Assembly (NCBI GenBank): GCA_964016885.1
Contig: OZ024751.1
Location: forward strand, 35,030,001 to 35,094,000
Origin: Eledone cirrhosa
Lineage: Eukaryota
Reading direction: 5' to 3'
Length of the DNA: 64,000 nucleotides
The position numbers and the translations under genes were made by a program. Shown here one piece after another: positions 1 through 64,000 of the stretch. The notes below the pieces were generated by a model, which was not told the origin of the DNA, searched no databases, and was given only the letters and a program-made list of their open reading frames with translations. How positions within the stretch are numbered: the first letter of the stretch is position 1; each line of letters opens with the position of its first letter.

Positions 1-452
1 TCCAAGACAATGTCACTGGACCGAGATCTTTGGCGGTACTCAGTAATAGAGAAGACCCGCCTTACCTAGATACAAAGTAAAACCTACTACAGTCAGTAGG
101 CACCTCTAACAAAATACACCCCCACCCCATCCACACCGCCCCTTTCAATGTAAAGTTATGTTGGTGCCACAACATCCAGGCCGAAACAAATGAGGTCGTG
201 TAGGTGTCACGACAAAAAAAAAAAACACAGTCCACGCAGTAATGTGGCCGTGTAGGTAACACGGTAAAAACCTCCCAGTCCCACACTGTAAATGCGGTTG
301 GTGTTAGGAAGGGCATCCAGCTGTAGAAAACCCGCCAGACAGTCCTATGCGAGCAAGACAACCACTCTTGCCTCAAGTGGGAAAATTCCCGTCCAAACCC
401 ATGCAAGCGTGGAATATGGACGTTAAACGATGATGATGATGATGATGATGAT
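1..452 (+). mobile_element. RTE-clade LINE 3' end (ORF C-terminus, 3' UTR, (GAT)n tail)
   Basis: 1..69 reads SKTMSLDRDLWRYSVIEKTRLT*; same sequence as the 3' end of the element at 26151-28077; ends ggacgttaaac(gat)n. Confidence 0.85.
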
Positions 453-570
453 ATATATATATATATATATATATATTCCTTTGACATTTCTTAGAAAAAA
501 AATGAAAAAGTTTTGTGAGAACCCCAATGTTTATTTATTTTATTTTATTTTTAAATAAAATTAATAACAT

Positions 571-1208
571 TAATTTTATTTTGAAATTAGGTTTATAAAT
601 ATTAATTATCAGCAGACCTTTGTAGCAGTCTTGGCGGCTTAGTGGGAAGTACCAGAGATGGTGAGGTCCTTGTCTGTAGGTTCAATCCTGGTCTGGGAGT
701 TCAATCATTGCTGTAATGTGTCCTGTTAATCTTTTTTTAAATTTTCCTCAGAAAAAACTGAAAATCTTTGGTGAGAACCCCAATGTCTATTTATCTAATA
801 TAATTTAATTTATTTTATTTTATTTTACTTTAGTTAAATTGTCAAAACCACTGGTGATCTAAAGTTAGAGGAGACAGATAAAATAGACATATTGTCTCCT
901 CAACCTTTAGATCTTCAGTGTTTTCGACAATTTAACTAAAATAAAAAATTAAATTCAATATAATTAAATAAATAGGGGTTCTCTTTTTCAAAGAGATATA
1001 GAAAGAAAATTATAAAAGATTAACATGACACCTTACATGTATCTCATGGACCAGGATTGAACCTGAGTCCCCAATTCAACCCTCAGACCAGGATTGAACA
1101 CCCAGAACAGGATCTCACCATCTCTGGTACTTCCCACTAAGCTACCAAGACTGATACAAAGATGTACTGAAATTTAATATTTATAAACCTACTTTCAAAA
1201 TAAAATTA
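571..1208. repeat. ~640-bp imperfect palindrome with tRNA-like heads in both arms
   Basis: gcttagtgggaagtaccagagatggtgag (637) is inverted at ~1113-1142; central ~48-bp stem 828-940; a third direct arm copy at 1234-1600. Confidence 0.85.
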
Positions 1209-1600
1209 AAAATAAAATATATATATATATATATTCCTTTGACATTTCTTAGAAAAAAGAACTGAAAAAGTTTTGTGAGAACGCCAATGTCTATTTATTT
1301 TATTTTATTTTTAATTAAATTAGTTATATTTTGAAAGTAGGTTTATAAATATTAATTTTCAATAGACCTTTGTAGCAGTCTTGGTGGCTTAGTGGGAAGT
1401 ACCAGAGATGGTGAGATCCTTGTCTGTAAGTTCAATTCTTGCTTGGAGACATGTCTAATGTGTCCTATTAATCTTTTTTTAATTTTCCTTTTACATCTCT
1501 TAGAAATAACTGAAAATCTTTGGTGAGAACCCCAATGTCTATTTATCTAATATAATTAATTTAATTTAATTTAATTTAATTTTTATTTTAGTGAAACCAC

Positions 1601-1938
1601 TGTTGTATTCAAGAGACCAGGTGGAGGGGTGGGTCTGCTAGATTCATCGTGGGTAAAGAACGGTGCTATGAACTTTTCTGGGTGGGAAATGACAATGGGC
1701 TGGGTATACACATACCACCCCACCACCCCACCGTAAAGTGGTCGTGGAGGCGCCACGGCAAAAAAGCACCCAGCCCGCTCTGTAAAGCTGACGTGGAGGT
1801 GCCACGGAAAAAAAAAAAGCACCCAGCACTCACTGCAAACTGGGTTGGCGTCAGGAAGGGCACCCAGCTGTAGAAACCAATCCAGAATCAGCTCCCACCC
1901 CACCCTTGCAAGCATGGAAAAGCGGACGTATGATGAAG
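1601..1938 (+). mobile_element. Bipartite RTE derivative cut by the spacer junction (also 29226-29563, 50899-51236)
   Basis: Begins abruptly at tgttgtattcaagagacc (CCIQETRW), equivalent to 7575. Confidence 0.8.
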
Positions 1939-1941
1939 TTG

Positions 1942-2041
1942 ATATATATATATATATATTAGTATATATATACACATACATATGTACACATATACACATA
2001 CATATATATATATATATACACACACATATATATCAGTGTAC

Positions 2042-2083
<42 letters not shown>
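1942..2083 (+). repeat. (TA)n-rich microsatellite after the bipartite RTE tail (every monomer)
   Basis: Directly visible; length differs between monomers. Confidence 0.9.
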
Positions 2084-2087
<4 letters not shown>

Positions 2088-2754
2088 GAATATTTATTCA
2101 ATTTAAAGCGCCAATTATCTATATATAACAAGATATGAATTTTTCTAGGGATGGGGAAATTTTCAGTTTGTTTTTATATTTTCACTTCATTTTTTACTTT
2201 CTATTTAATACAGTCTTTGATCCAATATAATCCTGACAGTATTTGAACCAGTTTACCTCATATATATGTATGCACACACAACACTCAAGTTTCGCCATCT
2301 ACTGCTATTTCATTCATATTTATTGTTTAATTAACTCTGGTCTAATTCATCAACTATTGTTAATTATATTATTACGTAGATTTCTTATAAAATCTAGTGC
2401 ATATATACGTGTATATACAGGGAGACACTGTGTAATAGATGTAAAGAGAGTGGGAGATAGAGTTATAGAAGTAAAGAGAGGGAGAGAAATAAGCGGTAGA
2501 TAGAGCAATAGATGTAAAGAGAGGGTTAGAACGTTCAACTTGACAGTCAGTACATATGCCAACTACCCAACCGGCCAGCCAGCCGTATTTGCGGTTGACT
2601 GGCCAGTTGGGCGGTTGGTATGTGGAACGTTCAACTATGCAGTCAGTACCAAAGTTCAACATTGTAGCCAGTGCATATGCCGATCGCCGCGACCTCTTTG
2701 CTCTATTTAAATGACCTGGAACTAAGTAAAAAGAGTAGGAGATAACTCGACAAG

Positions 2755-2840
2755 AGCGGAGAGGGTGAGATTCGAACCATGTAAAGTCGTTGGCTCCTGA
2801 ACTTCGTAAGCGGGGCTGCTACTGACTGAGCAACGCCGGC
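2755..2840 (-). other. tRNA-like Pol III head (also 8740-8825, 14640-14725, 20595-20680, 30382-30467, 36365-36450, 42264-42349, 52055-52140, 58038-58123, partial at window end)
   Basis: Minus strand GCCGGCGTTGCTCAGTCAGTAG (A box-like), GGTTCGAATC (B box), T5 about 25 nt downstream; no acceptor stem. Confidence 0.6.
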
Positions 2841-3143
2841 AGCAAGGCAAATCGCGCATAAAATAACGCTTATATCGAGAAAATAAAACAAAAATTTCAA
2901 TGTTGCACTCTTGTTTGTTGTTCTTTTATTTTACGTAAACATTTCGCTGCTCTAGCCTCTTATTTCCTATTAGATTACACTTAATTCCATTAAACATTCA
3001 TTCTTAGTCTCGTGGTAAACTATTTCATCTATATTTATATCGCTGTTACAGCCTTTTATTTCTACATCTATCACCTATAGCCACTGTTACGCCGGTAGTA
3101 TAAGTAGCTTTATAACAAGAAACGATGATATAACTCCACAAAA

Positions 3144-3196
3144 TGTCTTCTTGAGCAAGACACTTCACCTCATATTGCTCCAGTACACCGAGTTAC
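3144..3196 (+). mobile_element. Isolated CORE-SINE core fragment (every monomer)
   Basis: cttgagcaagacacttcacctcatattgctccagt matches the core of the 6504-6859 SINE. Confidence 0.65.
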
Positions 3197-3856
3197 ACAT
3201 AGACAGACACATACATACACATATATATGTACACAGATAGAAATAAGAGGGAGATAGAGTAAAAGATGTAAAGATAGTGTAAAAGATTTAAAGAGAGGGT
3301 GAGAGTGTGACACACATTTATCTGTCTATCTCTCTCTATTTTAACACCGGTCGTTATAATTAGTTTTATAACACCGCTATATTACCGACATGAAAGAGGT
3401 AAATAATTATTTCTTAAATGTTTAGAACATGTTTCTCTTGTCTTCTTAAATGTATAGAACATGTTTCTTATTTATATTCTTAACATAGCTAGGACCTTAT
3501 CTCATTTACTGGTCTCTACTTTTAGGGCTTTGCTGGTCCCATGTGCCCTCCATGAAGACACACTCGCCCCTTCTCTCTCAGTCTCCGTACTAATTACTAC
3601 ACATACGTATATATATTTATTTTAAGAAACCTTAATGACAAATAATATAAAGTGTTTGTAAAGTGGGGAAGAGTAGTTTTACGGTGGGGTTGTTATATAG
3701 ATATCGTTTTTGCAGTGGGGTCGTGACTGGCGTATAATAATGAGTCACTGTTGATGTATATACAAATCATATTTTGGATATAAGTGAAGTTATTTAAGAG
3801 ATTTAGTTGTTTTGTATACATTCCAGTTGTTGTCTCCCTGTTTCTTCTTCAACAAC

Positions 3857-5850
3857 CTATAACGGTACGCGATGGGGCCCACCCACAGCCCCGGCGGACA
3901 GAATGGAGAAGGCGTTTCCCCGGAGCACGGCAAGGGAGACGCGCTGGAAAAGCCACTCCAACTCGCGGGGCTCACACCTGCGACTGGCCAGCTCAGCGCC
4001 TATGGTGGTGAGTAAGGAGGTAGCCCTGGGGTCGAGGACACCAGAAGTCTCCACTTCCAGGGGTACGACCGCAAACCTGTCGGAGAGTGAACGATATGTG
4101 AGGAGTTTGGCCCTCTCAGCCTGACGTGCAGCAGAACCTGGGCCAGTCGCAGACTGCACCAGGTTGCGGCTGCAGAAAGTGTCGGTGCAAGTGGCATCCC
4201 AGACGAGGGGTTTGCCACCGCGGAACGGGAAGATGGTCATGCCATCTGGCCTTTTGCCGTCCCCTGGAGCTGGGAAGGGAAGCCTGCAGCGTCCAAGCCA
4301 TGCTTAATGATTTCGTTGAGGGCAGCATGGCGTGGATTGCGGCTGGCACTGTGGCGACAGGAAAGCGGGTGGAGGCCGAAAGAGTCCATGGTGGAACGGC
4401 AGCGACATTGGTGTGAGGCCGAGCCTCAGGGAAACGCCGATGCGCAAGCTATGGTTGTCTAGCTGCGTGCGAGTGGAGAAGGAGGGCAGGGCATGGAGCC
4501 AGGCCCCACTGTGGGGTTTGGAGGCCGCACGAAAACAAACAAGGCGGTGCTGGTCGAGCTGGCACGTGAGCCTGTCTGAGGCCAGGCTGCACTGGATGGC
4601 ATCCCAAGTGTGTTGGGGGGACTTGACGTCAACAGGGGGAGAAGGAGGAGGAACGTCTACTGGGCTAAGTCCCAGCCGGTGCCACGTCTCACAGGCGGCC
4701 ACGCGTTCTCTGAACACAGAGGGTTCTGTTGTGTTTTGAAGAACCCTGCTGAGATGGACGTGGTACGAGGTTACCGACGAAAGATACGCCGGCAAAGCTA
4801 GTGAGATCGGGGACTGGAGGCGAAGGTCGCCATACCTGATAGGTAAAGTTGCATATCTCATCGGCTGCTGCTCGGATACAAGTCTGGGTGTAGCACAGAG
4901 TGTATAGAGGAGCTTCGGCATGGCGTAGCAGTTCCTCAGCAGAAAGAGAACTGGGTGGCCATCAATCAAGCCCAGTCGGCTCGTGAGAGTCTGAACTTGA
5001 TGGTGGAGCGGATGGCCGGCGGGTGGATCGGTGAGGGCATCCTCTTTGGGGGTCACCTGAACCTGGCGGAGAATGGACCGCACGTCCAAGACGGAGACTG
5101 CAAAGCTTGCAGCATCGAGGCTGACATTCACCACCTCCGACTTGGCTGAGTTGACCTGGAGGTCGATTCCCGCCAGGGCAGGAACCACCGATTGAAGGTC
5201 ATGGCAGACCGCCTGTACGGGCCCACCCAAAGTAGCATCATCCAGATACCAAACGTTGAGAGGGGCCATTATACTCCGGGCGATGTGGTCAATACCAAGG
5301 GTGAACAGGAGGGGTCCCAAAGGGTTGCCCTGTTGGATCCCAGTAGCCAAGGGTATGACCGTATCAGCAGCATGTCGCATGCTCGGGGCTCCATATGACA
5401 GCTAGGCAGAGGGGGCTCGGCTGAGGCAGGCCTCGAGCAGATGATCCCAGCGTAAAGAGTTGAAGGCATTCCTCATGTCAAACTTGACAATGAGGTGGCT
5501 GGAGTCCCTGGATGACGGTTCCGAGTGTTACGGACTTGCAGGTTACCTTGGCAGCCAGCCTCCGGAAGACATTGCCCACAGCAATGGGGCGTATGCCACC
5601 CTCTTTCTTCCTGAGAGCGGTGAAGCTGGCTGAAAAAAAGAGGCCTCGAGCATAAGAGTCCAGGGCGCCATGGATGAGCCTATTGGTGAGCGCCACAATT
5701 GCACTCAGAAGGCGGCGCCCGGCCTCAGCGGAGAGGGGAGATGTCAACTCCTTGAGGAGGCCTGGTCAGAGACCATCAACATCACCGCAGCTGCTAGCTG
5801 GGAAGGACCTGATGGCGGACATGATGTCTGCATCAGAAGCCACAACGAGC
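3857..5850 (-). mobile_element. Decayed CRE-clade non-LTR retrotransposon (RT, CCHC knuckle, restriction-like endonuclease), monomer A
   Basis: Across frames: RPIAVGNVFRRLAAK, KFDMRNAFNS, GIQQGNPLGPLLF, WYLDD, ATLPIRYG, SGAWLHALP, CRC..HPLSC..RHAALNEII, KRPDGMTIFPFRGGKPLVWDAT, VPLEVETSG. Stops, frameshifts, internal deletions, 5' truncated. Confidence 0.88.
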
Positions 5851-5932
5851 AAGTGTGGATTACAATACAAAACCTCTGAGAATGATTTCTAAGATATTTC
5901 ACCATAATTAATTTTCATCAATATATATTAAT

Positions 5933-6235
5933 ATTATTATTGTTTATTAGGTCAGGTGGATTGGCCAGAACAATTCTACTCTTCTTTTTTAGATGTCACG
6001 ATTTTTCATGGCATTCCTGAGATCATTAATCTCCAGCTGGAGATCCAGAGACATCTGATGTATGTAGGTGAACCTCAGTCATCCCACTAGGGTCTTACTA
6101 TGTTTAGGTATCCACCACAGGAGCCAGCTCATCAGGTCATCCTACCCTCAGCAGCAATGTCCAGCATCTATTGATTTCCGCTCCCTAGTTATTGTGGTAA
6201 TCTTCGATATCTGGGAATATATTTCTTCTGCTTAA
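5933..6235 (-). mobile_element. Old RTE/RTEX-type LINE 3' fragment (all monomers: also ~11858, 17798, 23729, 33560, 39484, 45398, 55233, 61156)
   Basis: Minus-strand translation with stops: ISKITTITRERKSIDAGHC..LMSWLLWWIPKH..FTYIHQ..DLRNAMKNRD; ends in a (TAA)-rich tail. Confidence 0.65.
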
Positions 6236-6310
6236 GGGAGTAATAAATATATAGTTTTTAAAAAAACATATATATACACACACATATATATATGTTGTCA
6301 TTTATAAGAG

Positions 6311-6449
6311 TTCTCTATCAAAAGCCTTCTCTATGTCCAAAGCTAAGTATAGTGGCTTATTTTTCTCTAAGAACCTCTTTTGTAGTTGTCTCACTAAGAA
6401 GAGGGCATCTGTTGCACTTTTCAGCGGCACAAAACCAAACTGCATCTCA
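6311..6449 (-). mobile_element. RTE RT fragment (all monomers; cut at 24224 and 45893 in D monomers)
   Basis: EMQFGFVPLKSATDALFLVRQLQKRFLEKNKPLYLALDIEKAFDR aligns by eye to the spacer RT EMQFGFVSGKSTTDALFIVRQLQEKYLVKSKPLYLAFVDLEKAFDR. Confidence 0.85.
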
Positions 6450-6503
6450 TACACATACATACATATACATACATACATACATACATATACACATACATAC
6501 ATA

Positions 6504-6859
6504 CATCATCATCATCATCATCATCATCATTTCGTTTTAAGTCCGCTTTTTCCCTGCTTGTAAGGGTGGGACAGGAACTGATTCTGGCTTGATTTCTACA
6601 GCTGGATGCCCTTCCTAACACCAACCTCATTTACAGTGAGTGCTGAGTGCTTTTTTGCCGTGGCACCTCCACGACCACTTTGCAGTGGAATGATATGGAC
6701 CCCAGTCCCTATCATCTCATTTCTACAGCTGAGTAAACTGGAGCAATGTGAAATAAAGTGTCTTGCTCAAGGAAACAACACATCACCCGGTCTGAGAATT
6801 GAACTCACAACCTTTCGATTGCCAGGCCAATGCTCGAACCACTAAGCCATGTGCCTCCA
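6504..6859 (-). mobile_element. tRNA-derived CORE-SINE with RTE-type 3' tail
   Basis: Minus strand: A box TGGCTTAGTGG, B box GAGTTCAATTC, CORE-like CCTTGAGCAAGACACTTTATTTCACATTGCTCCAGTTTACTCAGCTGTAGAAATG (resembles MIR core), then GGTTGGTGTTAGGAAGGGCATCCAGCTGTAGAAA shared with the RTE 3' UTR, (GAT)n end. Confidence 0.85.
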
Positions 6860-7363
6860 TATACATATACATATACATACACATACATATACATATACAT
6901 ACATATATATATACATACATACATATATACACATACATACATACATACACATACATACACATATACATACATATATATACATACATACACATACATAGAT
7001 ATATATATATACATAATATAAATATACATACATACACATACATAAGCATATACACATAAGTATATATACATATACACACGTATATATACATATACATACA
7101 TACATATATACACATACATACATATATACATACATACACACATATACATACATATATACATATACACATACATACATATACATACATATACACATACATA
7201 CATATATATACATACACACACATATATACATACACACACATATATACAAACACATACATATACACATATATACACATACATATACATACATATACACATA
7301 TACACTCATATATACATATACATACATACACACACATACATACATATATACATATACATACAT
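6860..7363 (+). repeat. ~500-bp compound (TA/CA/TACA)n microsatellite (also ~12781-13275, 18720-19210, 34487-34990, 40407-40893, 56160-56663, 62075-62571)
   Basis: Directly visible. Confidence 0.95.
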
Positions 7364-7919
7364 AAAGACAAATCCACCTCATGGACGAGAATGCAAGGGC
7401 TCCTCCTCTTTGTTTCGGCCGCGGATGGCTAACCCTAACCCCATCCCCGCTCCCCACCGCTCCCAACCTCCAAACGCAATCCAAAACTTCAGAGTTGGTA
7501 CCATTAATGTAGGCACCTTATAGGGTGGCTCTAACGAGGTTGTAGAAATGCTTGAACGTAAGGAGGTCGATGTTTGTTGTATTCAAGAGACCAGGTGGAG
7601 GGGTGGGTCTGCTAGATTCATCGTGGGTAAAGAACGATGCTATAAGCTTTTCTGTGTGGCAAATAACAATGGGCTGGGTATACACATACCACCCCACCGC
7701 CTCACCGCCCCACCGCAAAGTGGTCGTGGAGGCGCCGCGGCAAAAAAGCACCCAGCCCACACTGTAAAGCTGACGTGGAGGTGCCACGGAAAAAAAAAAG
7801 CACCCAGCACTCACTGCAAACGAGGTTGGCGTCAGGAAGGGCACCCAGCTGTAGAAACCAATCCAGAATCAGCTCCCACCCCACCCTTGCAAGCATGGAA
7901 AAGCGGACGTATGATGAAG
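7364..7919 (+). mobile_element. Internally deleted (bipartite) RTE element: 5' region and APE endonuclease N-terminus fused to RTE 3' UTR
   Basis: [42 protein letters not shown] (APE N-terminus) runs directly into a tail homologous to 110-450. Confidence 0.82.
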
Positions 7920-7926
7920 TTGATAT

Positions 7927-7969
<43 letters not shown>

Positions 7970-8014
7970 TATATATATACACATATATATATACACACAT
8001 ATATATCAGTGTAC

Positions 8015-8045
<31 letters not shown>

Positions 8046-8537
8046 AATGAATATTTATTCAATTTAAAGCGCCAATTATCTATATATAACAAGATATGAA
8101 TTTTTCTAGGGATGGGGAAATTTTCAGTTTGTTTTTATATTTTCACTTCATTTTTTACTTTCTATTTAATACAGTCTTTGATCCAATATAATCCTGACAG
8201 TATTTGAACCAGTTTACCTCATATATATGTATGCACACACAACACTCAAGTTTCGCCATCTACTGCTATTTCATTCATATTTATTGTTTAATTAACTCTG
8301 GTCTAATTCATCAACTATTGTTAATTATATTATTACGTAGATTTCTTATAAAATCTAGTGCATATATACGTGTATATATACAGGGAGACACTGTAATAGA
8401 TGTAAAGAGAGTGGGAGATAGAGTTATAGAAGTAAAGAGAGGGGGAGAAATAAGCGGTAGATAGAGTAATAGATGTAAAGAGAGGGTTAGAACGTTCAAC
8501 TTGACAGTCAGTACAATGTTCAGCATGGTAGCCAGTA

Positions 8538-8609
8538 CATATGCCAACTACCCAACCGGCCAGCCAGCCGCATATGCGGTTGACTGGCCAGTTGGGCGGT
8601 TGGTATGTG
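8538..8609. repeat. 72-nt imperfect palindrome, one per monomer (e.g. 2553-2624)
   Basis: 36-nt arms CATATGCCAACTACCCAACCGGCCAGCCAGCCGCAT and ATGCGGTTGACTGGCCAGTTGGGCGGTTGGTATGTG; 7 differences, all transitions. Confidence 0.85.
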
Positions 8610-9819
8610 GAACGTTCAACTACGCAGTCAGTACCAAAGTTCAACATTGTAGCCAGTGCATATGCCGATCGCCGCGCCCTCTTTGCTCTATTTTAATGAC
8701 CTGGAACTAAGTAAAAAGAGTAGGAGATAACTCGACAAGAGCGGAGAGGGTGAGATTCGAACCATGTAAAGTCGTTGGCTCCCGAAGTTCGTAAGCGGGG
8801 CTGCTACTGACTGAGCAGCGCCGGCAGCAAGGCAAATCGCGCATAAAATAACGCTTATATCGACAAAAAAATAAAAAAATTTCAATGTTGCACTCTTGTT
8901 TGTTGTTCTTTTATTTTACGTAAACATTTCGCTGCTCTAGCCTCTTATTTCCTATTAGATTACACTTAATTCCATTAAACATTCATTCTTAGTCTCGTGG
9001 TAAACTATTTCATCTATATTTATATCGCTGTTACAGCCTTTTATTTCTACATCTATCACCTATAGCCACTGTTACGCCGGTAGTATAAGTAGCTTTATAA
9101 CAAGAAACGATGATATAACTCCACAAAATGTCTTCTTCAGCAAGACACTTCACTTCATATTGCTCCAGTACACCGAGTTACACATAGACAGATACATACA
9201 TACATACACAGATAGAAATGAGAGGTAGATAGAGTAAAAGATTTAAAGAGAGTGTGAGAAGTACGAGTTAGATAGTGTAAAAGATTTAAAGAGAGGGTGA
9301 GAGTGTGACACACATTTATCTGTCTATCTCTCTCTATTTTAACACCGGTCGTTATAATTAGTTTTATAACACCGCTATATTACCGACATGAAAGAGGTAA
9401 ATAATTATTTCTTAAATGTTTAGAACATGTTTCTCTTGTCTTCTTAAATGTATAGAACATGTTTCTTATTTATATTCTTAACATAGCTAGGACCTTATCT
9501 CATTTACTGGTCTCTACTTTTAGGGCTTTGCTGGTCCCATGTGCCCTCCATGAAGACACACTCGCCCCTTCTCTCTCAGTCTCCGTACTAATTACTACAC
9601 ATACGTATATATATTTATTTTAAGAAACCTTAATGACAAATAATATAAAGTGTTTGTAAAGTGGGGAAGAGTAGTTTTACGGTGGGGTTGTTATATAGAT
9701 ATCGTTTTTGCAGTGGGGTCGTGACTGGCGTATAATAATGAGTCACTGTTGATGTATATACAAATCATGTTTTGGATATAAGTGAAGTTATTTAAGAGAT
9801 TTAGTTGTTTTGTATACAT

Positions 9820-11775
9820 TCATAACGGTACGCGATGGGACCCACCCACAGCCCCGGCGGACAGAATGGAGAAGGCGTTTCCCCGGAGCACGGCAAGGGA
9901 GACGCGCTGGAAAAGCCACTCCAACTCGCGGGGCTCACACCTGCGGCTGGCCAGCTCAGCGCCTATGGTGGTGAGTAAGGAGGTAGCCCTGGGGCCGAGG
10001 ACACCAGAAGTCTCCACTTCCAGGGGTACGACCGCAAACCTGTCGGAGAGTGAACGATATGTGAGGAGTTTGGCCCCCTCAGCCTGACGTGCAGCAGAAC
10101 CTGGGCCAGTCGCAGACTGCACCAGGTTGCGGCTGCAGAAAGTGTCGGTGCAAGTGGCATCCCAGACGAGGGGTTTGCCACCGCGGAACGGGAAGATGGT
10201 CATGCCATCTAGCCTTTTGCCGTCCCCTCGAGCTGGGAAGGGAAGCCTGCAGCGTCCAAGCCATGCTTAATGACTTCGTTGAGGGCAGCATGGCGTGGAT
10301 TGCGGGTGGAGGCCGAAAGAGTTCATGGTGGAACGGCAGCGACATTGGTGTGAGGCCGAGCCTCAGGGAAACGCCGATGCGCAAGCTATTGTCGTCTAGC
10401 TGCGTGCGAGTGGAGAAGGAGGGCAGGGCATGGAGCCAGGCCCCACTGTGGGGTTTGGAGGCTGCACGAAAACAAACAAGGCGGTGCTGGTCGAGCTGGC
10501 ACGTGAGCCTGTCTGAGGCCAGGCTGCACTGGATGGCATCCCAAGTGTGTTGGGGGGGACTTGACGTCAACAGGGGGAGAAGGAGGAGGAACGTCTACTG
10601 GGCTAAGTCCCAGCCGGTGCCACGTCTCACAGGCGGCCACGCGTTCTCTGAACACAGAGGGTTCTGTTGTGTTTTGAAGAACCCTGCTGAAGAGGACGTG
10701 GTACGAGGTTACCGACGAAAGATATGCCGGCAAAGCTAGTGAGATCGGGGACTGGAGGCGAAGGCCGCCATACCTGACAGGTAAAGTTGCATATCTCATC
10801 GGCTGCTGCTCGGATACAAGTTTAGGTGTAGCACAGAGTGTATAGAGGAGCTTCGGCATGGCGTAGCAGTTCCTCAGCAGAAAGAGAACTGGGTGGCCAT
10901 CAATCAAGCCCAGTCGGCTCGTGAGAGTCTGGACTTGATGGAGGAGCGGATGGCCGGCGGGTGGATCGGTGAGGGGGTCACCTGAACCTGGCGGAGAATG
11001 GACCGCACGTCCAAGACGGAGACTGCAAAGCTTGCAGTATCGAGGCTGACATTCACCACCTCCGACTTGGCTGAGTTGACCTGGAGGTCGATTCCCGCCA
11101 GGGCAGGAACCACCGATTGAAGGTCATGGCAGATCGCCTGTACGGGCCCACCCAAAGTAGCATCATCCAGATACCAAACGTTGAGAGGGGCCGTTATACT
11201 CCAGGCGATGTGGTCAATACCAAGGGTGAACAGGAGGGGTCCCAAAGGGTTGCCCTGTTGGATCCCAGTAGCCAAGGGTATGACCGTATCAGCAGCATGG
11301 CGCATGCTTGGGGCTCCATATGACAGGTAGGCAGAGGGGGCTCGGCTGAGGCAGGCCTCGAGCAGATGATCCCAGCGTAAAGAGTTGAAGGCATTCCTCA
11401 TGTCAAACTTGACAATGAGGTGGCTGGAGTCCCTGGATGCCGGTTCCGAGTGTTACGGACTTGCAGATTACCTTGGCAGCCAGCCTCCGGAAGACATTGC
11501 CCACAGCAATGGGGCGTATGCCATCCTCTTTCTTCCTGAGAGCGGTGAGGCTGGCCGAAAAAAAGAGGCCTCGAGCATAAGAGTCCAGGGCGCCATGGAT
11601 GAGCCTATTGGTGAGCGCCACAATTGCACTCAGAAGGCGGCGCCCGGCCTCAGCGGAGAGGGGAGATATCAACTCCTTGAGGAGGCCTGGTCAGAGACCA
11701 TCAACATCTCCGCAGCTGCTAGCTGGGAAGGACCTGATGGCGGACATGATGTCTGCATCAGAAGCCACAAGGAGC
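9820..11775 (-). mobile_element. Decayed CRE-clade element, monomer B
   Basis: Same motifs; extra 26-nt, ~13-nt and 35-nt deletions relative to A. Confidence 0.88.
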
Positions 11776-12424
11776 AAGTGTGGATTACAATACAAAACCT
11801 CTGAGAATGATTTCTAAGATATTTCACCATAATTAATTTTCATCAATATATATTAATATTATTATTGTTTATTAGGTCAGGTGGATTGGCCAGAACAATT
11901 CTACTCTTCTTTTTTAGATGTCACGATTTTTCATGGCATTCCTGAGATCATTAATCTCCAGCTGGAGATCCAGAGACATCTGATGTATGTAGGTGAACCT
12001 CAGTCATCCCACTTGGCTCTTACTATGTTTAGGTATCAACCACAGGAGCCAGCTCATCAGGTCATCCTACCCTCAGCAGCAATGTCCAGCATCTATTGAT
12101 TTCCGCTCCCTAGTTATTGTGGTAATCTTCGATATCTGGGAATATATTTCTTCTGCTTAAGGGAGTAATAAATATATAGTTTTAAAAAAAACATATATAT
12201 ACACACACATATATATATGTTGTCATTTATAAGAGCTCTCTATCAAAAGCCTTCTCTATGTCCAAAGCTAAGTATAGTGGCTTATTTTTCTCTAAGAACC
12301 TCTTTTGTAGTTGTCTCACTAAGAAGAGGGCATCTGTTGCACTTTTCAGCGGCACAAAACCAAACTGCATCTCATACACATACATACATATACATACATA
12401 CATACATATACACATACATACATA

Positions 12425-12780
12425 CATCATCATCATCATCATCATCATCATTTCGTTTTAAGTCCGCTTTTTCCCTGCTTGCAAATGTGGGACGGGAACT
12501 GATTCTAGCTTGATTTCTACAGCTGGATGCCCTTCCTAACACCAACCTCATTTACAGTGAGTGCTGGGTGCTTTTTTGCCGTGGCACCTCCACGACCACT
12601 TTGCAGTGGAATGATATGGACCCCAGTCCCTATCATCTCATTTCTACAGCTGAGTAAACTGGAGCAATGTGAAATAAAGTGTCTTGCTCAAGGAAACAAC
12701 ACATCACCCGGTCTGAGAATTGAACTCACAACCTTTCGATTGCCAGGCCAATGCTCGAACCACTAAGCCATGTGCCTCCA
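12425..12780 (-). mobile_element. tRNA-CORE SINE copy
   Basis: Copy of 6504-6859. Confidence 0.85.
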
Positions 12781-49746: not shown

Positions 49747-49776
<30 letters not shown>

Positions 49777-49868
49777 CTTTGACATTTCTTAGAAAAAAAA
49801 TGAAAAAGTTTTGTGAGAACCCCAATGTTTATTTATTTTATTTTATTTTTAAATAAAATTAATAACAT

Positions 49869-51339: not shown

Positions 51340-51385
<46 letters not shown>

Positions 51386-53156: not shown

Positions 53157-55150
53157 CTATAACGGTACGCGATGGGGCCCACCCACAGCCCCGGCGGACA
53201 GAATGGAGAAGGCGTTTCCCCGGAGCACGGCAAGGGAGACGCGCTGGAAAAGCCACTCCAACTCGCGGGGCTCACACCTGCGACTGGCCAGCTCAGCGCC
53301 TATGGTGGTGAGTAAGGAGGTAGCCCTGGGGTCGAGGACACCAGAAGTCTCCACTTCCAGGGGTACGACCGCAAACCTGTCGGAGAGTGAACGATATGTG
53401 AGGAGTTTGGCCCTCTCAGCCTGACGTGCAGCAGAACCTGGGCCAGTCGCAGACTGCACCAGGTTGCGGCTGCAGAAAGTGTCGGTGCAAGTGGCATCCC
53501 AGACGAGGGGTTTGCCACCGCGGAACGGGAAGATGGTCATGCCATCTGGCCTTTTGCCGTCCCCTGGAGCTGGGAAGGGAAGCCTGCAGCGTCCAAGCCA
53601 TGCTTAATGATTTCGTTGAGGGCAGCATGGCGTGGATTGCGGCTGGCACTGTGGCGACAGGAAAGCGGGTGGAGGCCGAAAGAGTCCATGGTGGAACGGC
53701 AGCGACATTGGTGTGAGGCCGAGCCTCAGGGAAACGCCGATGCGCAAGCTATGGTTGTCTAGCTGCGTGCGAGTGGAGAAGGAGGGCAGGGCATGGAGCC
53801 AGGCCCCACTGTGGGGTTTGGAGGCCGCACGAAAACAAACAAGGCGGTGCTGGTCGAGCTGGCACGTGAGCCTGTCTGAGGCCAGGCTGCACTGGATGGC
53901 ATCCCAAGTGTGTTGGGGGGACTTGACGTCAACAGGGGGAGAAGGAGGAGGAACGTCTACTGGGCTAAGTCCCAGCCGGTGCCACGTCTCACAGGCGGCC
54001 ACGCGTTCTCTGAACACAGAGGGTTCTGTTGTGTTTTGAAGAACCCTGCTGAGATGGACGTGGTACGAGGTTACCGACGAAAGATACGCCGGCAAAGCTA
54101 GTGAGATCGGGGACTGGAGGCGAAGGTCGCCATACCTGATAGGTAAAGTTGCATATCTCATCGGCTGCTGCTCGGATACAAGTCTGGGTGTAGCACAGAG
54201 TGTATAGAGGAGCTTCGGCATGGCGTAGCAGTTCCTCAGCAGAAAGAGAACTGGGTGGCCATCAATCAAGCCCAGTCGGCTCGTGAGAGTCTGAACTTGA
54301 TGGTGGAGCGGATGGCCGGCGGGTGGATCGGTGAGGGCATCCTCTTTGGGGGTCACCTGAACCTGGCGGAGAATGGACCGCACGTCCAAGACGGAGACTG
54401 CAAAGCTTGCAGCATCGAGGCTGACATTCACCACCTCCGACTTGGCTGAGTTGACCTGGAGGTCGATTCCCGCCAGGGCAGGAACCACCGATTGAAGGTC
54501 ATGGCAGACCGCCTGTACGGGCCCACCCAAAGTAGCATCATCCAGATACCAAACGTTGAGAGGGGCCGTTATACTCCGGGCGATGTGGTCAATACCAAGG
54601 GTGAACAGGAGGGGTCCCAAAGGGTTGCCCTGTTGGATCCCAGTAGCCAAGGGTATGACCGTATCAGCAGCATGTCGCATGCTCGGGGCTCCATATGACA
54701 GCTAGGCAGAGGGGGCTCGGCTGAGGCAGGCCTCGAGCAGATGATCCCAGCGTAAAGAGTTGAAGGCATTCCTCATGTCAAACTTGACAATGAGGTGGCT
54801 GGAGTCCCTGGATGACGGTTCCGAGTGTTACGGACTTGCAGGTTACCTTGGCAGCCAGCCTCCGGAAGACATTGCCCACAGCAATGGGGCGTATGCCACC
54901 CTCTTTCTTCCTGAGAGCGGTGAAGCTGGCTGAAAAAAAGAGGCCTCGAGCATAAGAGTCCAGGGCGCCATGGATGAGCCTATTGGTGAGCGCCACAATT
55001 GCACTCAGAAGGCGGCGCCCGGCCTCAGCGGAGAGGGGAGATGTCAACTCCTTGAGGAGGCCTGGTCAGAGACCATCAACATCACCGCAGCTGCTAGCTG
55101 GGAAGGACCTGATGGCGGACATGATGTCTGCATCAGAAGCCACAACGAGC
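53157..55150 (-). mobile_element. Decayed CRE-clade element, A-type
   Basis: 358-aa ORF 53604..54680. Confidence 0.88.
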
Positions 55151-55803
55151 AAGTGTGGATTACAATACAAAACCTCTGAGAATGATTTCTAAGATATTTC
55201 ACCATAATTAATTTTCATCAATATATATTAATATTATTATTGTTTATTAGGTCAGGTGGATTGGCCAGAACAATTCTACTCTTCTTTTTTAGATGTCACG
55301 ATTTTTCATGGCATTCCTGAGATCATTAATCTCCAGCTGGAGATCCAGAGACATCTGATGTATGTAGGTGAACCTCAGTCATCCCACTAGGGTCTTACTA
55401 TGTTTAGGTATCCACCACAGGAGCCAGCTCATCAGGTCATCCTACCCTCAGCAGCAATGTCCAGCATCTATTGATTTCCGCTCCCTAGTTATTGTGGTAA
55501 TCTTCGATATCTGGGAATATATTTCTTCTGCTTAAGGGAGTAATAAATATATAGTTTTTAAAAAAACATATATATACACACACATATATATATGTTGTCA
55601 TTTATAAGAGTTCTCTATCAAAAGCCTTCTCTATGTCCAAAGCTAAGTATAGTGGCTTATTTTTCTCTAAGAACCTCTTTTGTAGTTGTCTCACTAAGAA
55701 GAGGGCATCTGTTGCACTTTTCAGCGGCACAAAACCAAACTGCATCTCATACACATACATACATATACATACATACATACATACATATACACATACATAC
55801 ATA

Positions 55804-56159
55804 CATCATCATCATCATCATCATCATCATTTCGTTTTAAGTCCGCTTTTTCCCTGCTTGTAAGGGTGGGACAGGAACTGATTCTGGCTTGATTTCTACA
55901 GCTGGATGCCCTTCCTAACACCAACCTCATTTACAGTGAGTGCTGAGTGCTTTTTTGCCGTGGCACCTCCACGACCACTTTGCAGTGGAATGATATGGAC
56001 CCCAGTCCCTATCATCTCATTTCTACAGCTGAGTAAACTGGAGCAATGTGAAATAAAGTGTCTTGCTCAAGGAAACAACACATCACCCGGTCTGAGAATT
56101 GAACTCACAACCTTTCGATTGCCAGGCCAATGCTCGAACCACTAAGCCATGTGCCTCCA
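55804..56159 (-). mobile_element. tRNA-CORE SINE copy
   Basis: Copy of 6504-6859. Confidence 0.85.
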
Positions 56160-56663
56160 TATACATATACATATACATACACATACATATACATATACAT
56201 ACATATATATATACATACATACATATATACACATACATACATACATACACATACATACACATATACATACATATATATACATACATACACATACATAGAT
56301 ATATATATATACATAATATAAATATACATACATACACATACATAAGCATATACACATAAGTATATATACATATACACACGTATATATACATATACATACA
56401 TACATATATACACATACATACATATATACATACATACACACATATACATACATATATACATATACACATACATACATATACATACATATACACATACATA
56501 CATATATATACATACACACACATATATAGATACACACACATATATACAAACACATACATATACACATATATACACATACATATACATACATATACACATA
56601 TACACTCATATATACATATACATACATACACACACATACATACATATATACATATACATACAT

Positions 56664-57219
56664 AAAGACAAATCCACCTCATGGACGAGAATGCAAGGGC
56701 TCCTCCTCTTTGTTTCGGCCGCGGATGGCTAACCCTAACCCCATCCCCGCTCCCCACCGCTCCCAACCTCCAAACGCAATCCAAAACTTCAGAGTTGGTA
56801 CCATTAATGTAGGCACCTTATAGGGTGGCTCTAACGAGGTTGTAGAAATGCTTGAACGTAAGGAGGTCGATGTTTGTTGTATTCAAGAGACCAGGTGGAG
56901 GGGTGGGTCTGCTAGATTCATCGTGGGTAAAGAACGATGCTATAAGCTTTTCTGTGTGGCAAATAACAATGGGCTGGGTATACACATACCACCCCACCGC
57001 CTCACCGCCCCACCGCAAAGTGGTCGTGGAGGCGCCGCGGCAAAAAAGCACCCAGCCCACACTGTAAAGCTGACGTGGAGGTGCCACGGAAAAAAAAAAG
57101 CACCCAGCACTCACTGCAAACGAGGTTGGCGTCAGGAAGGGCACCCAGCTGTAGAAACCAATCCAGAATCAGCTCCCACCCCACCCTTGCAAGCATGGAA
57201 AAGCGGACGTATGATGAAG
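56664..57219 (+). mobile_element. Bipartite RTE derivative copy
   Basis: Copy of 7364-7919. Confidence 0.82.
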
Positions 57220-57226
57220 TTGATAT

Positions 57227-57269
<43 letters not shown>

Positions 57270-59117
57270 TATATATATACACATATATATATACACACAT
57301 ATATATCAGTGTACATATATATATACATATATATATATATATAAATGAATATTTATTCAATTTAAAGCGCCAATTATCTATATATAACAAGATATGAATT
57401 TTTCTAGGGATGGGGAAATTTTCAGTTTGTTTTTATATTTTCACTTCATTTTTTACTTTCTATTTAATACAGTCTTTGATCCAATATAATCCTGACAGTA
57501 TTTGAACCAGTTTACCTCATATATATGTATGCACACACAACACTCAAGTTTCGCCATCTACTGCTATTTCATTCATATTTATTGTTTAATTAACTCTGGT
57601 CTAATTCATCAACTATTGTTAATTATATTATTACGTAGATTTCTTATAAAATCTAGTGCATATATACGTGTATATATACAGGGAGACACTGTAATAGATG
57701 TAAAGAGAGTGGGAGATAGAGTTATAGAAGTAAAGAGAGGGGGAGAAATAAGCGGTAGATAGAGTAATAGATGTAAAGAGAGGGTTAGAACGTTCAACTT
57801 GACAGTCAGTACAATGTTCAGCATGGTAGCCAGTACATATGCCAACTACCCAACCGGCCAGCCAGCCGCATATGCGGTTGACTGGCCAGTTGGGCGGTTG
57901 GTATGTGGAACGTTCAACTACGCAGTCAGTACCAAAGTTCAACATTGTAGCCAGTGCATATGCCGATCGCCGCGCCCTCTTTGCTCTATTTTAATGACCT
58001 GGAACTAAGTAAAAAGAGTAGGAGATAACTCGACAAGAGCGGAGAGGGTGAGATTCGAACCATGTAAAGTCGTTGGCTCCCGAAGTTCGTAAGCGGGGCT
58101 GCTACTGACTGAGCAGCGCCGGCAGCAAGGCAAATCGCGCATAAAATAACGCTTATATCGACAAAAAAATAAAAAAATTTCAATGTTGCACTCTTGTTTG
58201 TTGTTCTTTTATTTTACGTAAACATTTCGCTGCTCTAGCCTCTTATTTCCTATTAGATTACACTTAATTCCATTAAACATTCATTCTTAGTCTCGTGGTA
58301 AACTATTTCATCTATATTTATATCGCTGTTACAGCCTTTTATTTCTACATCTATCACCTATAGCCACTGTTACGCCGGTAGTATAAGTAGCTTTATAACA
58401 AGAAACGATGATATAACTCCACAAAATGTCTTCTTGAGCAAGACACTTCACTTCATATTGCTCCAGTACACCGAGTTACACATAGACAGATACATACATA
58501 CATACACAGATAGAAATGAGAGGTAGATAGAGTAAAAGATTTAAAGAGAGTGTGAGAAGTACGAGTTAGATAGTGTAAAAGATTTAAAGAGAGGGTGAGA
58601 GTGTGACACACATTTATCTGTCTATCTCTCTCTATTTTAACACCGGTCGTTATAATTAGTTTTATAACACCGCTATATTACCGACATGAAAGAGGTAAAT
58701 AATTATTTCTTAAATGTTTAGAACATGTTTCTCTTGTCTTCTTAAATGTATAGAACATGTTTCTTATTTATATTCTTAACATAGCTAGGACCTTATCTCA
58801 TTTACTGGTCTCTACTTTTAGGGCTTTGCTGGTCCCATGTGCCCTCCATGAAGACACACTCGCCCCTTCTCTCTCAGTCTCCGTACTAATTACTACACAT
58901 ACGTATATATATTTATTTTAAGAAACCTTAATGACAAATAATATAAAGTGTTTGTAAAGTGGGGAAGAGTAGTTTTACGGTGGGGTTGTTATATAGATAT
59001 CGTTTTTGCAGTGGGGTCGTGACTGGCGTATAATAATGAGTCACTGTTGATGTATATACAAATCATGTTTTGGATATAAGTGAAGTTATTTAAGAGATTT
59101 AGTTGTTTTGTATACAT

Positions 59118-61073
59118 TCATAACGGTACGCGATGGGACCCACCCACAGCCCCGGCGGACAGAATGGAGAAGGCGTTTCCCCGGAGCACGGCAAGGGAGA
59201 CGCGCTGGAAAAGCCACTCCAACTCGCGGGGCTCACACCTGCGGCTGGCCAGCTCAGCGCCTATGGTGGTGAGTAAGGAGGTAGCCCTGGGGCCGAGGAC
59301 ACCAGAAGTCTCCACTTCCAGGGGTACGACCGCAAACCTGTCGGAGAGTGAACGATATGTGAGGAGTTTGGCCCCCTCAGCCTGACGTGCAGCAGAACCT
59401 GGGCCAGTCGCAGACTGCACCAGGTTGCGGCTGCAGAAAGTGTCGGTGCAAGTGGCATCCCAGACGAGGGGTTTGCCACCGCGGAACGGGAAGATGGTCA
59501 TGCCATCTAGCCTTTTGCCGTCCCCTCGAGCTGGGAAGGGAAGCCTGCAGCGTCCAAGCCATGCTTAATGACTTCGTTGAGGGCAGCATGGCGTGGATTG
59601 CGGGTGGAGACCGAAAGAGTCCATGGTGGAACGGCAGCGACATTGGTGTGAGGCCGAGCCTCAGGGAAACGCCGATGCGCAAGCTATTGTTGTCTAGCTG
59701 CGTGCGAGTGGAGAAGGAGGGCAGGGCATGGAGCCAGGCCCCACTGTGGGGTTTGGAGGCTGCACGAAAACAAACAAGGCGGTGCTGGTCGAGCTGGCAC
59801 GTGAGCCTGTCTGAGGCCAGGCTGCACTGGATGGCATCCCAAGTGTGTTGGGGGGGACTTGACGTCAACAGGGGGAGAAGGAGGAGGAACGTCTACTGGG
59901 CTAAGTCCCAGCCGGTGCCACGTCTCACAGGCGGCCACGCGTTCTCTGAACACAGAGGGTTCTGTTGTGTTTTGAAGAACCCTGCTGAAGAGGACGTGGT
60001 ACGAGGTTACCGACGAAAGATATGCCGGCAAAGCTAGTGAGATCGGGGACTGGAGGCGAAGGCCGCCATACCTGACAGGTAAAGTTGCATATCTCATCGG
60101 CTGCTGCTCGGATACAAGTTTAGGTGTAGCACAGAGTGTATAGAGGAGCTTCGGCATGGCGTAGCAGTTCCTCAGCAGAAAGAGAACTGGGTGGCCATCA
60201 ATCAAGCCCAGTCGGCTCGTGAGAGTCTGGACTTGATGGAGGAGCGGATGGCCGGCGGGTGGATCGGTGAGGGGGTCACCTGAACCTGGCGGAGAATGGA
60301 CCGCACGTCCAAGACGGAGACTGCAAAGCTTGCAGTATCGAGGCTGACATTCACCACCTCCGACTTGGCTGAATTGACCTGGAGGTCGATTCCCGCCAGG
60401 GCAGGAACCACCGATTGAAGGTCATGGCAGATCGCCTGTACGGGCCCACCCAAAGTAGCATCATCCAGATACCAAACGTTGAGAGGGGCCGTTATACTCC
60501 AGGCGATGTGGTCAATACCAAGGGTGAACAGGAGGGGTCCCAAAGGGTTGCCCTGTTGGATCCCAGTAGCCAAGGGTATGACCGTATCAGCAGCATGGCG
60601 CATGCTTGGGGCTCCATATGACAGGTAGGCAGAGGGGGCTCGGCTGAGGCAGGCCTCGAGCAGATGATCCCAGCGTAAAGAGTTGAAGGCATTCCTCATG
60701 TCAAACTTGACAATGAGGTGGCTGGAGTCCCTGGATGCCGGTTCCGAGTGTTACGGACTTGCAGATTACCTTGGCAGCCAGCCTCCGGAAGACATTGCCC
60801 ACAGCAATGGGGCGTATGCCATCCTCTTTCTTCCTGAGAGCGGTGAGGCTGGCCGAAAAAAAGAGGCCTCGAGCATAAGAGTCCAGGGCGCCATGGATGA
60901 GCCTATTGGTGAGCGCCACAATTGCACTCAGAAGGCGGCGCCCGGCCTCAGCGGAGAGGGGAGATATCAACTCCTTGAGGAGGCCTGGTCAGAGACCATC
61001 AACATCTCCGCAGCTGCTAGCTGGGAAGGACCTGATGGCGGACATGATGTCTGCATCAGAAGCCACAAGGAGC
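59118..61073 (-). mobile_element. Decayed CRE-clade element, B-type
   Basis: ORF 60202..60699 equals 10904..11401. Confidence 0.88.
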
Positions 61074-61718
61074 AAGTGTGGATTACAATACAAAACCTCT
61101 GAGAATGATTTCTAAGATATTTCACCATAATTAATTTTCATCAATATATATTAATATTATTATTGTTTATTAGGTCAGGTGGATTGGCCAGAACAATTTT
61201 ACTCTTCTTTTTTAGATGTCACGATTTTTCATGGCATTCCTGAGATCATTAATCTCCAGCTGGAGATCCAGAGACATCTGATGTATGTAGGTGAACCTCA
61301 GTCATCCCACTTGGCTCTTACTATGTTTAGGTATCAACCACAGGAGCCAGCTCATCAGGTCATCCTACCCTCAGCAGCAATGTCCAGCATCTATTGATTT
61401 CCGCTCCCTAGTTATTGTGGTAATCTTCGATATCTGGGAATATATTTCTTCTGCTTAAGGGAGTAATAAATATATAGTTTTAAAAAAAACATATATATAC
61501 ACACACATATATATATGTTGTCATTTATAAGAGCTCTCTATCAAAAGCCTTCTCTATGTCCAAAGCTAAGTATAGTGGCTTATTTTTCTCTAAGAACCTC
61601 TTTTGTAGTTGTCTCACTAAGAAGAGGGCATCTGTTGCACTTTTCAGCGGCACAAAACCAAACTGCATCTCATACACATACATACATATACATACATACA
61701 TATACACATACATACATA

Positions 61719-62074
61719 CATCATCATCATCATCATCATCATCATTTCGTTTTAAGTCCGCTTTTTCCCTGCTTGCAAATGTGGGACGGGAACTGATTCT
61801 AGCTTGATTTCTACAGCTGGATGCCCTTCCTAACACCAACCTCATTTACAGTGAGTGCTGGGTGCTTTTTTGCCGTGGCACCTCCACGACCACTTTGCAG
61901 TGGAATGATATGGACCCCAGTCCCTATCATCTCATTTCTACAGCTGAGTAAACTGGAGCAATGTGAAATAAAGTGTCTTGCTCAAGGAAACAACACATCA
62001 CCCGGTCTGAGAATTGAACTCACAACCTTTCGATTGCCAGGCCAATGCTCGAACCACTAAGCCATGTGCCTCCA
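61719..62074 (-). mobile_element. tRNA-CORE SINE copy
   Basis: Copy of 12425-12780. Confidence 0.85.
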
Positions 62075-62571
62075 TATACATATACATATACATACACATA
62101 CATATACATATACATACATATATATATACATACATAGATATATACACATACATACATACATACACATACATACACATATACATACATATATATACATACA
62201 TACACATACATAGATATATATATATAAATATACATACATACACATACATAAGCATATACACATAAGTATATATACATATACACACGTATATATACATATA
62301 CATACATACATATATACACATACATACATATATACATAAATACACACATATACATACACATACATACATATACATACATATACACATACATACATATATA
62401 TATATATACGTACACACACATATATACATACACACACATATATACAAACACATACATATACACATATATACACATACATACACATACATATACATACATA
62501 TACACATATACACTCATATATACATATACATACATACACACACATACATACATATATACATATACATACAT

Positions 62572-63119
62572 AAAGACAAATCCACCTCATGGACGAGAAT
62601 GCAAGGGCTCCTCCTCTTTGTTTCGGCCGCGGATGGCTAACCCTAACCCCATCCCCCCTCCCCACCGCTCCCAACCTCCAAACGCAATCCAAAACTTCAG
62701 AGTTGGTACCATTAATGTAGGCACCTTATAGGGTGGCTCTAACGAGGTTGTAGAAATGCTTGAACGTAAGGAGGTCGATGTTTGTTGTATTCAAGAGACC
62801 AGGTGGAGGGGTGGGTCTGCTAGATTCATCGTGGGTAAAGAACGATGCTATAAGCTTTTCTGTGTGGCAAATGACAATGGGCTGGGTATACACATACCAC
62901 CCCACCGCCCCACCGCAAAGTGGTCGTGGAGGGGCCGCGGCCAAAAAGCACCCAGCCCACACTGTAAAGCTGACGTGGAGGTGCCACGGAAAAAAAAAAG
63001 CACCCAGCACTCACTGCAAACGGGGTTGGCGTCAGGAAGGGCACCCAGCTGTAGAAACCAATCCAGAATCAGCTCCCACCCCACCCTTGCAAGCATGGAA
63101 AAGCGGACGTATGATGAAG
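62572..63119 (+). mobile_element. Bipartite RTE derivative copy
   Basis: Copy of 13276-13823. Confidence 0.82.
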
Positions 63120-63120
63120 T

Positions 63121-63179
<59 letters not shown>

Positions 63180-64000
63180 TATATATATACACATATATAT
63201 ATACACACATATATATCAGTGTACATATATATATACATATATATATATATATAAATGAATATTTATTCAATTTAAAGCGCCAATTATCTATATATAACAA
63301 GATATGAATTTTTCTAGGGATGGGGAAATTTTCAGTTTGTTTTTATATTTTCACTTCATTTTTTACTTTCTATTTAATACAGTCTTTGATCCAATATAAT
63401 CCTGACAGTATTTGAACCAGTTTACCTCATATATATGTATGCACACACAACACTCAAGTTTCGCCATCTACTGCTATTTCATTCATATTTATTGTTTAAT
63501 TAACTCTGGTCTAATTCATCAACTATTGTTAATTATATTATTACGTAGATTTCTTATAAAATCTAGTGCATATATACGTGTATATATACAGGGAGACACT
63601 GTAATAGATGTAAAGAGAGTGGGAGATAGAGTTATAGAAGTAAAGAGAGGGGGAGAAATAAGCGGTAGATAGAGTAATAGATGTAAAGAGAGGGTTAGAA
63701 CGTTCAACTTGACAGTCAGTACAATGTTCAGCATGGTAGCCAGTACATATGCCAACTACCCAACCGGCCAGCCAGCCGCATATGCGGTTGACTGGCCAGT
63801 TGGGCGGTTGGTATGTGGAACGTTCAACTACGCAGTCAGTACCAAAGTTCAACATTGTAGCCAGTGCATATGCCGATCGCCGCGCCCTCTTTGCTCTATT
63901 TTAATGACCTGGAACTAAGTAAAAAGAGTAGGAGATAACTCGACAAGAGCGGAGAGGGTGAGATTCGAACCATGTAAAGTCGTTGGCTCCTGAAGTTCGT

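Follow-up and report, generated by a model that had tools for sequence, protein, structure and literature searches.

The 64,000-bp stretch of Eledone cirrhosa DNA analyzed here (positions 35,030,001 to 35,094,000 of contig OZ024751.1, assembly GCA_964016885.1; hereafter the window) is a real, well-formed megasatellite with a higher-order repeat structure. Its monomers are composites of ~5.9 kb, and they are arranged in blocks of 3-4 that are each marked by a 5-kb spacer. We consider it probable that this composite megasatellite arose when the spacer-marked blocks were recently multiplied by unequal crossing over, and that it is maintained by recombination and does not work as a machine.

Higher-order organization of the array

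Monomer starts, placed by one 30-base anchor word, fall at ten positions (1601, 7575, 13487, 19422, 29226, 35202, 41105, 50899, 56875, and 62783). Full monomers are 5,903-5,976 bp long, and the monomer that precedes each spacer (D′) is truncated at phase 6428, which leaves 4,803 and 4,789 bp. The first higher-order unit (1601-29225, 27,625 bp) contains A1 (1601-7574), B1 (7575-13486), C1 (13487-19421), a truncated D1 (19422-24224), and a whole spacer of 5,001 bp (24225-29225). The second unit (29226-50898) is one monomer shorter and contains A2 (29226-35201), B2 (35202-41104), a truncated D2 (41105-45893) in which C-type letters form a patch close to the start, and a whole spacer of 5,005 bp (45894-50898). 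The third (50899-64000) ends at the window edge after A3 (50899-56874), B3 (56875-62782), and the start of C3 (62783-64000). Positions 1-1600 are the right-hand part of a further spacer, the end of the preceding unit, and match 27626-29225 and 49295-50898. The window shows 2.3 higher-order units, with the monomer order A-B-C-D′, A-B-D′, and A-B-C (partial).

When the window was compared with itself by BLAST, long direct matches were found at offsets of 5,974, 11,886, 17,821, 21,651, 27,625, and 49,294. At an offset of 27,625, identity is 99.5% over 18.3 kb, and at 49,294 (the sum of 27,625 and 21,669) it is 99.7% over 14.7 kb. The unit periods are 27,625 and 21,669-21,673 bp, and their difference of 5,956 bp is one monomer. 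A preliminary description of this stretch had given periods of 27,625 and then 21,669 bp, with which both the self-BLAST offsets and the monomer anchors agree. It had also proposed ~5.9-kb monomer types A-D in a fixed order with a 5-kb spacer; the ten monomers and the spacers are as described, but unit 2 is without C.

Divergence was counted outside simple repeats, which were masked. All seven same-type monomer pairs differ by 4-6 substitutions in ~4.6 kb (0.086-0.130%), and all 29 different-type pairs are 0.30-1.83% apart. Since neighboring monomers (six pairs) are 0.35-1.56% apart, monomers at the same position are more alike than neighbors, as the preliminary description had reported; the types that it called diverged are, at 0.3-1.8%, only slightly so. 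Pairwise comparison of the three units gave 11, 12, and 15 substitutions plus 4-5 gaps per 13.5 kb. The array therefore has both properties of a higher-order repeat, namely same-position monomers that are closer than neighbors and, in the 2.3 units visible, a fixed order with units that differ by whole monomers.

Signs of recombination in the second unit

The monomers around the missing C are mosaic. B2 is of B type up to phase 7449, and D2 is then of D type at 1671, of C type at 1751 and 1760, and of D type from 2774. A lost monomer and a mosaic C/D start in the same unit are what unequal crossover predicts, and, judged from this sequence, patchy exchange near the monomer start would have removed C from unit 2. 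Copies of the same type show 21 differences, 8 of them with both alleles present in other types and 13 with one allele private to the type. Conversion may explain the 8 shared-allele differences, and polishing with mixed reads could do so too.

Composition of the monomer

When 209 database proteins were compared with monomer A2 by tblastn, matches to proteins of long interspersed nuclear elements (LINEs) spanned 2,476 of its 5,976 bp (~41%). They form four stretches: an endonuclease fragment at either end, a reverse transcriptase (RT) element of 2.0 kb, and an RT fragment of 160 bp, the last two on the minus strand. By hand annotation, carried out without a transposon library, the monomer is 44% LINE, 12% like short interspersed nuclear elements (SINEs), 13% simple repeat, and 31% without assignment, a remainder that may include older elements. 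We take the SINE-like pieces to be such from their motifs, together with peaks in contig depth and a weak transfer RNA (tRNA) match. The claim of the preliminary description that the array is built entirely from retrotransposon relics is thus overstated, being neither shown nor excluded.

The retroelement reading frames are broken in all four monomer types, the retroelement pieces lie on both strands, and the boundaries of the unit fall inside LINE fragments. Such a unit is not mobile, and the array does not move by retrotransposition. With two LINE families, SINE-like pieces, and three simple repeats, the tandem unit contains at least three repeat types, as a composite megasatellite does.

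The spacer and its junctions

The monomer-monomer boundary runs through a 5′ apurinic-endonuclease fragment of a LINE (7376-7700, plus strand; tblastn match at 34998-35309, across 35202; weak PF03372 match). This fragment is unbroken from one monomer to the next and is cut at the spacer/A junction. At its other end, the spacer cuts, at phase 6428 in D monomers, the RT fragment of a LINE of the endonuclease/RT/PHD kind (6310-6475, minus strand; tblastn match at 33941-34102 in A2). Because both ends of the spacer cut LINE fragments that stay intact at monomer-monomer joins, the spacer is secondary. At the right junction, a truncated copy from the fold-back region of the spacer meets the endonuclease fragment at a microhomology of a few bases, and the left junction carries a 14-bp local duplication. 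From the sequence of these junctions, we infer that 1,146 bp of a monomer were exchanged for the spacer through end-joining, and that the spacer is younger than the layout of the monomer itself.

Depth of the array in public sequencing runs

Among 16 listed public sequencing runs, five hold at least half of the monomer-core words, and these five represent two studies and three organism labels. Contigs of four of the 16 runs (X1, X2, X5, and X6) were compared with 19905-24585; runs X7-X12, which hold small shares, lie outside this comparison. In X2, the five listed contigs that match the monomer have depths of 3,318-4,898, two diverged retroelement pieces have depths of 9 and 16, and the eighth listed piece, diverged and spacer-like, has a depth of 720. 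Under organism labels other than that of X2, the eight listed pieces of X1 have depths of 10-18 and those of X5 depths of 3-9, which is similar to the diverged pieces there. This contrast in depth suggests that monomers number in the hundreds in one sample but are few in the remaining ones, and that the expansion was large and recent.

The letters that distinguish monomer types give an estimate of block composition. In X2, an A-type letter has a depth of 1,749 and window-type spacer letters one of ~1,840, compared with 4,763 where all types agree; A and spacer are near 1:1, with roughly one of each for every 2.6-2.7 monomers. Letters specific to D were absent from the compared contigs, and contigs drop variants. 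The D′/spacer junction is bridged by an X1 contig with 44 and 361 letters on its two sides, and three X2 contigs carry on there into the linker of the monomer. In X6 (88 million letters), one contig covers 19905-20932 at a depth of 27.5, with little or no cover of 21161-21474, and we read neither as evidence on expression.

Four clustered letters at 24316-24332 set the spacer end of the window apart from the form in X1, X5, and X6, and X2 has both forms at similar depth.

Proposed origin of the array

The above results can be accommodated in four steps. An ordinary transposon-rich patch of 5.9 kb would have become tandem, and its copies would have drifted 0.3-1.8% apart. End-joining would then have swapped 1,146 bp of a monomer for 5.0 kb of other genomic DNA, which marked the block; this second step may also have come first. 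Amplification of the 27.6-kb block would, at equal rates, be ~15 times younger than the A/B split, a ratio based on 0.1% divergence between blocks compared with 1.5-1.8% for the oldest monomer split. Finally, one monomer would have been lost through misaligned exchange between neighbors, with short patches resembling conversion as its traces; such unequal exchange would add monomers as well as remove them.

Several points weigh against this account. Contig depth is not copy number, a single-copy baseline is absent from the comparison, and X2 may derive from the very sample that was assembled. X2 contains a second spacer-end variant at a depth of 2,014 that, when counted in, gives ~1.2 monomers per spacer compared with 3-4 in the window, and this variant is the sole form in X1, X5, and X6. 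In X1 the D′/spacer junction lies at a flat depth of 10-17, so that a single core joined to a spacer could predate the monomer tandem. The conversion-like patches could be polishing errors, only 2.3 units are visible, and neutrality is judged from few sites.

A hairpin and a polymerase III-like cassette in the monomer

Two further elements, both in the unassigned part of the monomer and unlike LINE debris, raise a different explanation, in which amplification acted on a small-RNA gene unit: the monomer would express a 113-nt polymerase III cassette and/or a 72-nt hairpin and carry the transposon debris as a passenger, as in tandem RNA-gene arrays. We consider this unlikely, although several properties of the two elements favor it. 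The hairpin (2553-2624, plus strand) lies between ~56-bp imperfect direct repeats, is present in 10 of 10 monomers at -45 to -54 kcal/mol depending on type, and is more stable than all of 200 shuffles (z = -8.0). Its predicted stable fold has the 60-80-nt size of a microRNA gene. One change between A and B retains a stem pair as G-U. The tRNA-like cassette (2728-2840, minus strand) has an A-box-like and a B-box-like motif, a run of five Ts, and a TATA-like word ~30 bases upstream. This pattern, which was fixed after the sequence had been viewed, occurred in 2 of 1000 shuffles and in 0 of 1000 when the TATA-like word was included. Contigs of X1, X2, and X6 have an intact B box and better-pairing hairpin letters. 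In X1 the region has a flat depth of ~15 in one contig, compared with flanking SINE bins of high depth, which argues against a young dispersed family at 90% identity.

Other properties of these elements count against a small-RNA unit. Of 9 whole cassettes, 2 (those of D1 and D2) have a broken B box, the hairpin is weakened by two changes in C1, D1, and D2 (3 of 10 monomers), and shuffled sequences fold as well as the predicted cassette transcript (z -0.2). Variable sites number 13 of 474 in the hairpin/polymerase III region and 47 of 2,130 in the dead retroelement (p = 0.50), so that the region shows no excess conservation over the latter. A decayed SINE head accounts for the boxes. At the gathering level, Rfam gave 0 matches in the 64-kb window; scans by E-value returned simple repeats that resemble microRNAs, one weak match for the hairpin, and a tRNA match of 22.8 bits at 6792-6849, and nothing meaningful for the cassette.

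Three specific identities for the cassette gained no support. As a tRNA gene, it was called 0 times by ARAGORN by default and with introns allowed, relaxed calls disagreed between A and B, and Rfam gave none. A vault RNA was unsupported. A miniature long terminal repeat (LTR) element of the Helenus type needs two LTRs that each contain the tRNA-like sequence (PMC10886601), and each monomer has one cassette with no second copy nearby. No exact match to a 29-base cassette pattern occurred among metagenome contigs. Octopus microRNAs that are already annotated may include the hairpin. Around it (2529-2680), A-type monomers are without 24 bp of the first direct repeat, and one X1 contig has the same gap.

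Other explanations for the array

An array homogenized like alpha-satellite higher-order repeats could be functional centromeric or subtelomeric chromatin, which we judge to be quite improbable here. The higher-order logic, the 99.9% identity of units, and the X2 depth that suggests a long array are consistent with such a role, and in humans the LTR arrays of greatest size lie in pericentromeric DNA (PMC2588610). Against it, there were 0 paired telomeric hexamers in the 64-kb window with up to one mismatch allowed, and the depth of 3-17 under two other organism labels suggests no amplification there. The monomer of alpha satellite is nucleosome-sized, at 171 bp, and that of the window is 5.9 kb. 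Both this length and the low divergence between monomers are unlike alpha satellite and count against a centromere.

An assembly artifact in unit number or order, with haplotigs or collapsed repeats placed in tandem, is very improbable. The 0.1% differences between units are near the level of consensus error, and mixed reads could give the mosaic patches. However, the substitutions and gaps that separate the three units amount to more forms than two haplotypes of one copy, the D′/spacer junction recurs in X1 and X2 contigs, and the X2 depth far exceeds that of the diverged pieces. Misassembly, which the preliminary description had named as a possible refutation and which was tested here in part, is thus unlikely given three distinct units, the depth contrast, and a junction-bridging contig.

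Least probable of all is a source of PIWI-interacting or small interfering RNAs that stores antisense copies of its transposon families, since the array does hold two LINE families, one of them (RT-endonuclease) abundant and varied in X2, but has their pieces on both strands and repeats few families many times where a defense cluster is expected to have varied content. None of the centromeric, subtelomeric, or small-RNA roles raised in the preliminary description gained support: paired telomeric hexamers are missing from the window, and the retroelement pieces lie on both strands.

Relationship to known arrays

The architecture of the window has a close counterpart in human arrays made of MaLR LTR elements. 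These LTR arrays occupy 54-80 kb on 13q11, 18p11, and 21q11, have ~3.5-kb monomers composed wholly of LTR-element fragments, six per higher-order unit, and are marked by an LTR6A insertion; some units are without one or three monomers, presumably through unequal crossing over (PMC2588610). Common to both systems are kilobase monomers of retroelement fragments in both orientations, a unit of ~21 kb marked by inserted DNA, and a unit that is short of a monomer. They differ in their parts. The human arrays have six 3.5-kb monomers of LTR pieces, and the window has 3-4 monomers of 5.9 kb made of non-LTR pieces, simple repeats, and unassigned DNA; the protein matches are to non-LTR elements, so this is not an LTR array of the human type. 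The human LTR6A insertion is clean, whereas the window has a composite spacer of 5 kb in the place of 1,146 bp, with end-joining scars. No sequence relationship is claimed, and the host of the window is an invertebrate.

Composites of the T2T-CHM13 assembly are tandem units of at least three repeat types that were likely expanded by unequal crossing over (bioRxiv 10.1101/2021.07.12.451456). The window has in common with them at least three repeat types in tandem and a unit that is not itself retrotransposing, and one such composite is said there to suggest higher-order structure. We found no captured protein-coding exon in the window, in contrast to those composites, and a hairpin and a polymerase III-like cassette instead. 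With alpha-satellite higher-order repeats, as defined in PMC2588610, the window shares same-position monomers that are more alike than neighbors; in both, units vary by whole monomers. The window monomer is 35 times longer, its types are 0.3-1.8% apart, and each unit has a non-monomer spacer. The analogy with alpha satellite drawn in the preliminary description therefore holds for the higher-order logic, but the human LTR arrays are the nearer case.

The window is a further case of a transposon-fragment megasatellite, an architecture already published for human LTR arrays. Its significance is that an invertebrate shows, with different parts, the human pattern of such megasatellites organized in higher-order units, and this recurrence favors an origin of higher-order repeats by recombination alone. 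The contrast in depth suggests that the expansion is young and that relatives have few copies, which makes the case usable for timing how such arrays arise. A bolder and rather unlikely extension is that a locus kept at low copy in sister lineages expanded explosively, in one octopus-like lineage, into a higher-order array of megabase scale; its cargo would be an undescribed polymerase III RNA gene together with a microRNA-like hairpin, or it would be the seed of a new centromere. If true, the satellite would have been caught as it was born, and relatives would still show the ancestral state. In listings of open-licence papers, a literature search found no title on cephalopod centromeric or megasatellite arrays, and a CENP-A or small-RNA signal at this array, if true, would be new for cephalopods.

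Other features of the monomer and spacer

Each monomer contains one 5′-truncated, frameshifted non-LTR retrotransposon (3857-5866, minus strand; tblastn match at 31505-33491 in A2) with an RVT_1 domain and a C-terminal restriction-like endonuclease region. We take this RT-endonuclease element to be CRE-like from the motifs of its endonuclease region. Its 89 homologues include Octopus sinensis, cuttlefish, moth, and tardigrade proteins, among them five named O. sinensis and three cuttlefish proteins at 33-56% identity; one tblastn alignment covers residues 1-529 of a 532-aa relative. No named CRE reference was among these homologues, and the endonuclease-like frame had no Pfam or PDB match and matched only unnamed Atlas clusters. 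The element has 59% G+C (3860-5800) compared with 36% in its surroundings. Non-LTR clades with restriction-like endonucleases (listed in PMC4640811) often target repeats. In common with the CRE clade, the window element has an RT followed by a C-terminal endonuclease-like region; it differs in being 5′-truncated and frameshifted in every monomer, a passenger and not the motor of the array.

The family of this element is represented by very many varied contigs in X2, whereas X1 and X5 have few. In X1, X2, and X6 (three of the four runs), contigs join the two flanks of the element (3645-5853; 21499-23650 in D1) with 22-28 other letters between them, which hints at a repeated target for the element; the short sides of these contigs have only 19-31 letters.

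Simple repeats of the monomer comprise an ATAC-type repeat of ~500 bp (6858-7364) and further repeats at 1942-2084 and 6448-6530, all found by repeat scan. The same scan placed a minisatellite of ~33 copies of 22-24 bp in the spacer (24588-25323). The spacer also contains a 5′-truncated RT-PHD LINE with a stop and a frame break (26130-27709, plus strand; RVT_1 and PHD, tblastn), presumably of the RTE type. Its full-length relatives are ~1,040-1,100 aa long with endonuclease, RT, and PHD, and the named matches of its RT are from animals other than octopus and cuttlefish. The best match to its frame, protein P0210 (75%), is labeled as from a bacterial genome bin and is probably animal DNA in a metagenome bin. 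An RTE-clade LINE has been reported in octopus (PMC9115989). An AT-rich fold-back region at 28084-29225, with direct and inverted copies, is truncated at the spacer/A junction; in it, a segment of ~400 bp occurs as direct, inverted, and direct copies around a palindrome with 54-bp arms (28448-28571). Finally, C1 has eight private substitutions and a 2-bp gap within 31 bases at phase 3554-3584 (near window position 15,450), a pattern like that of a single clustered event.

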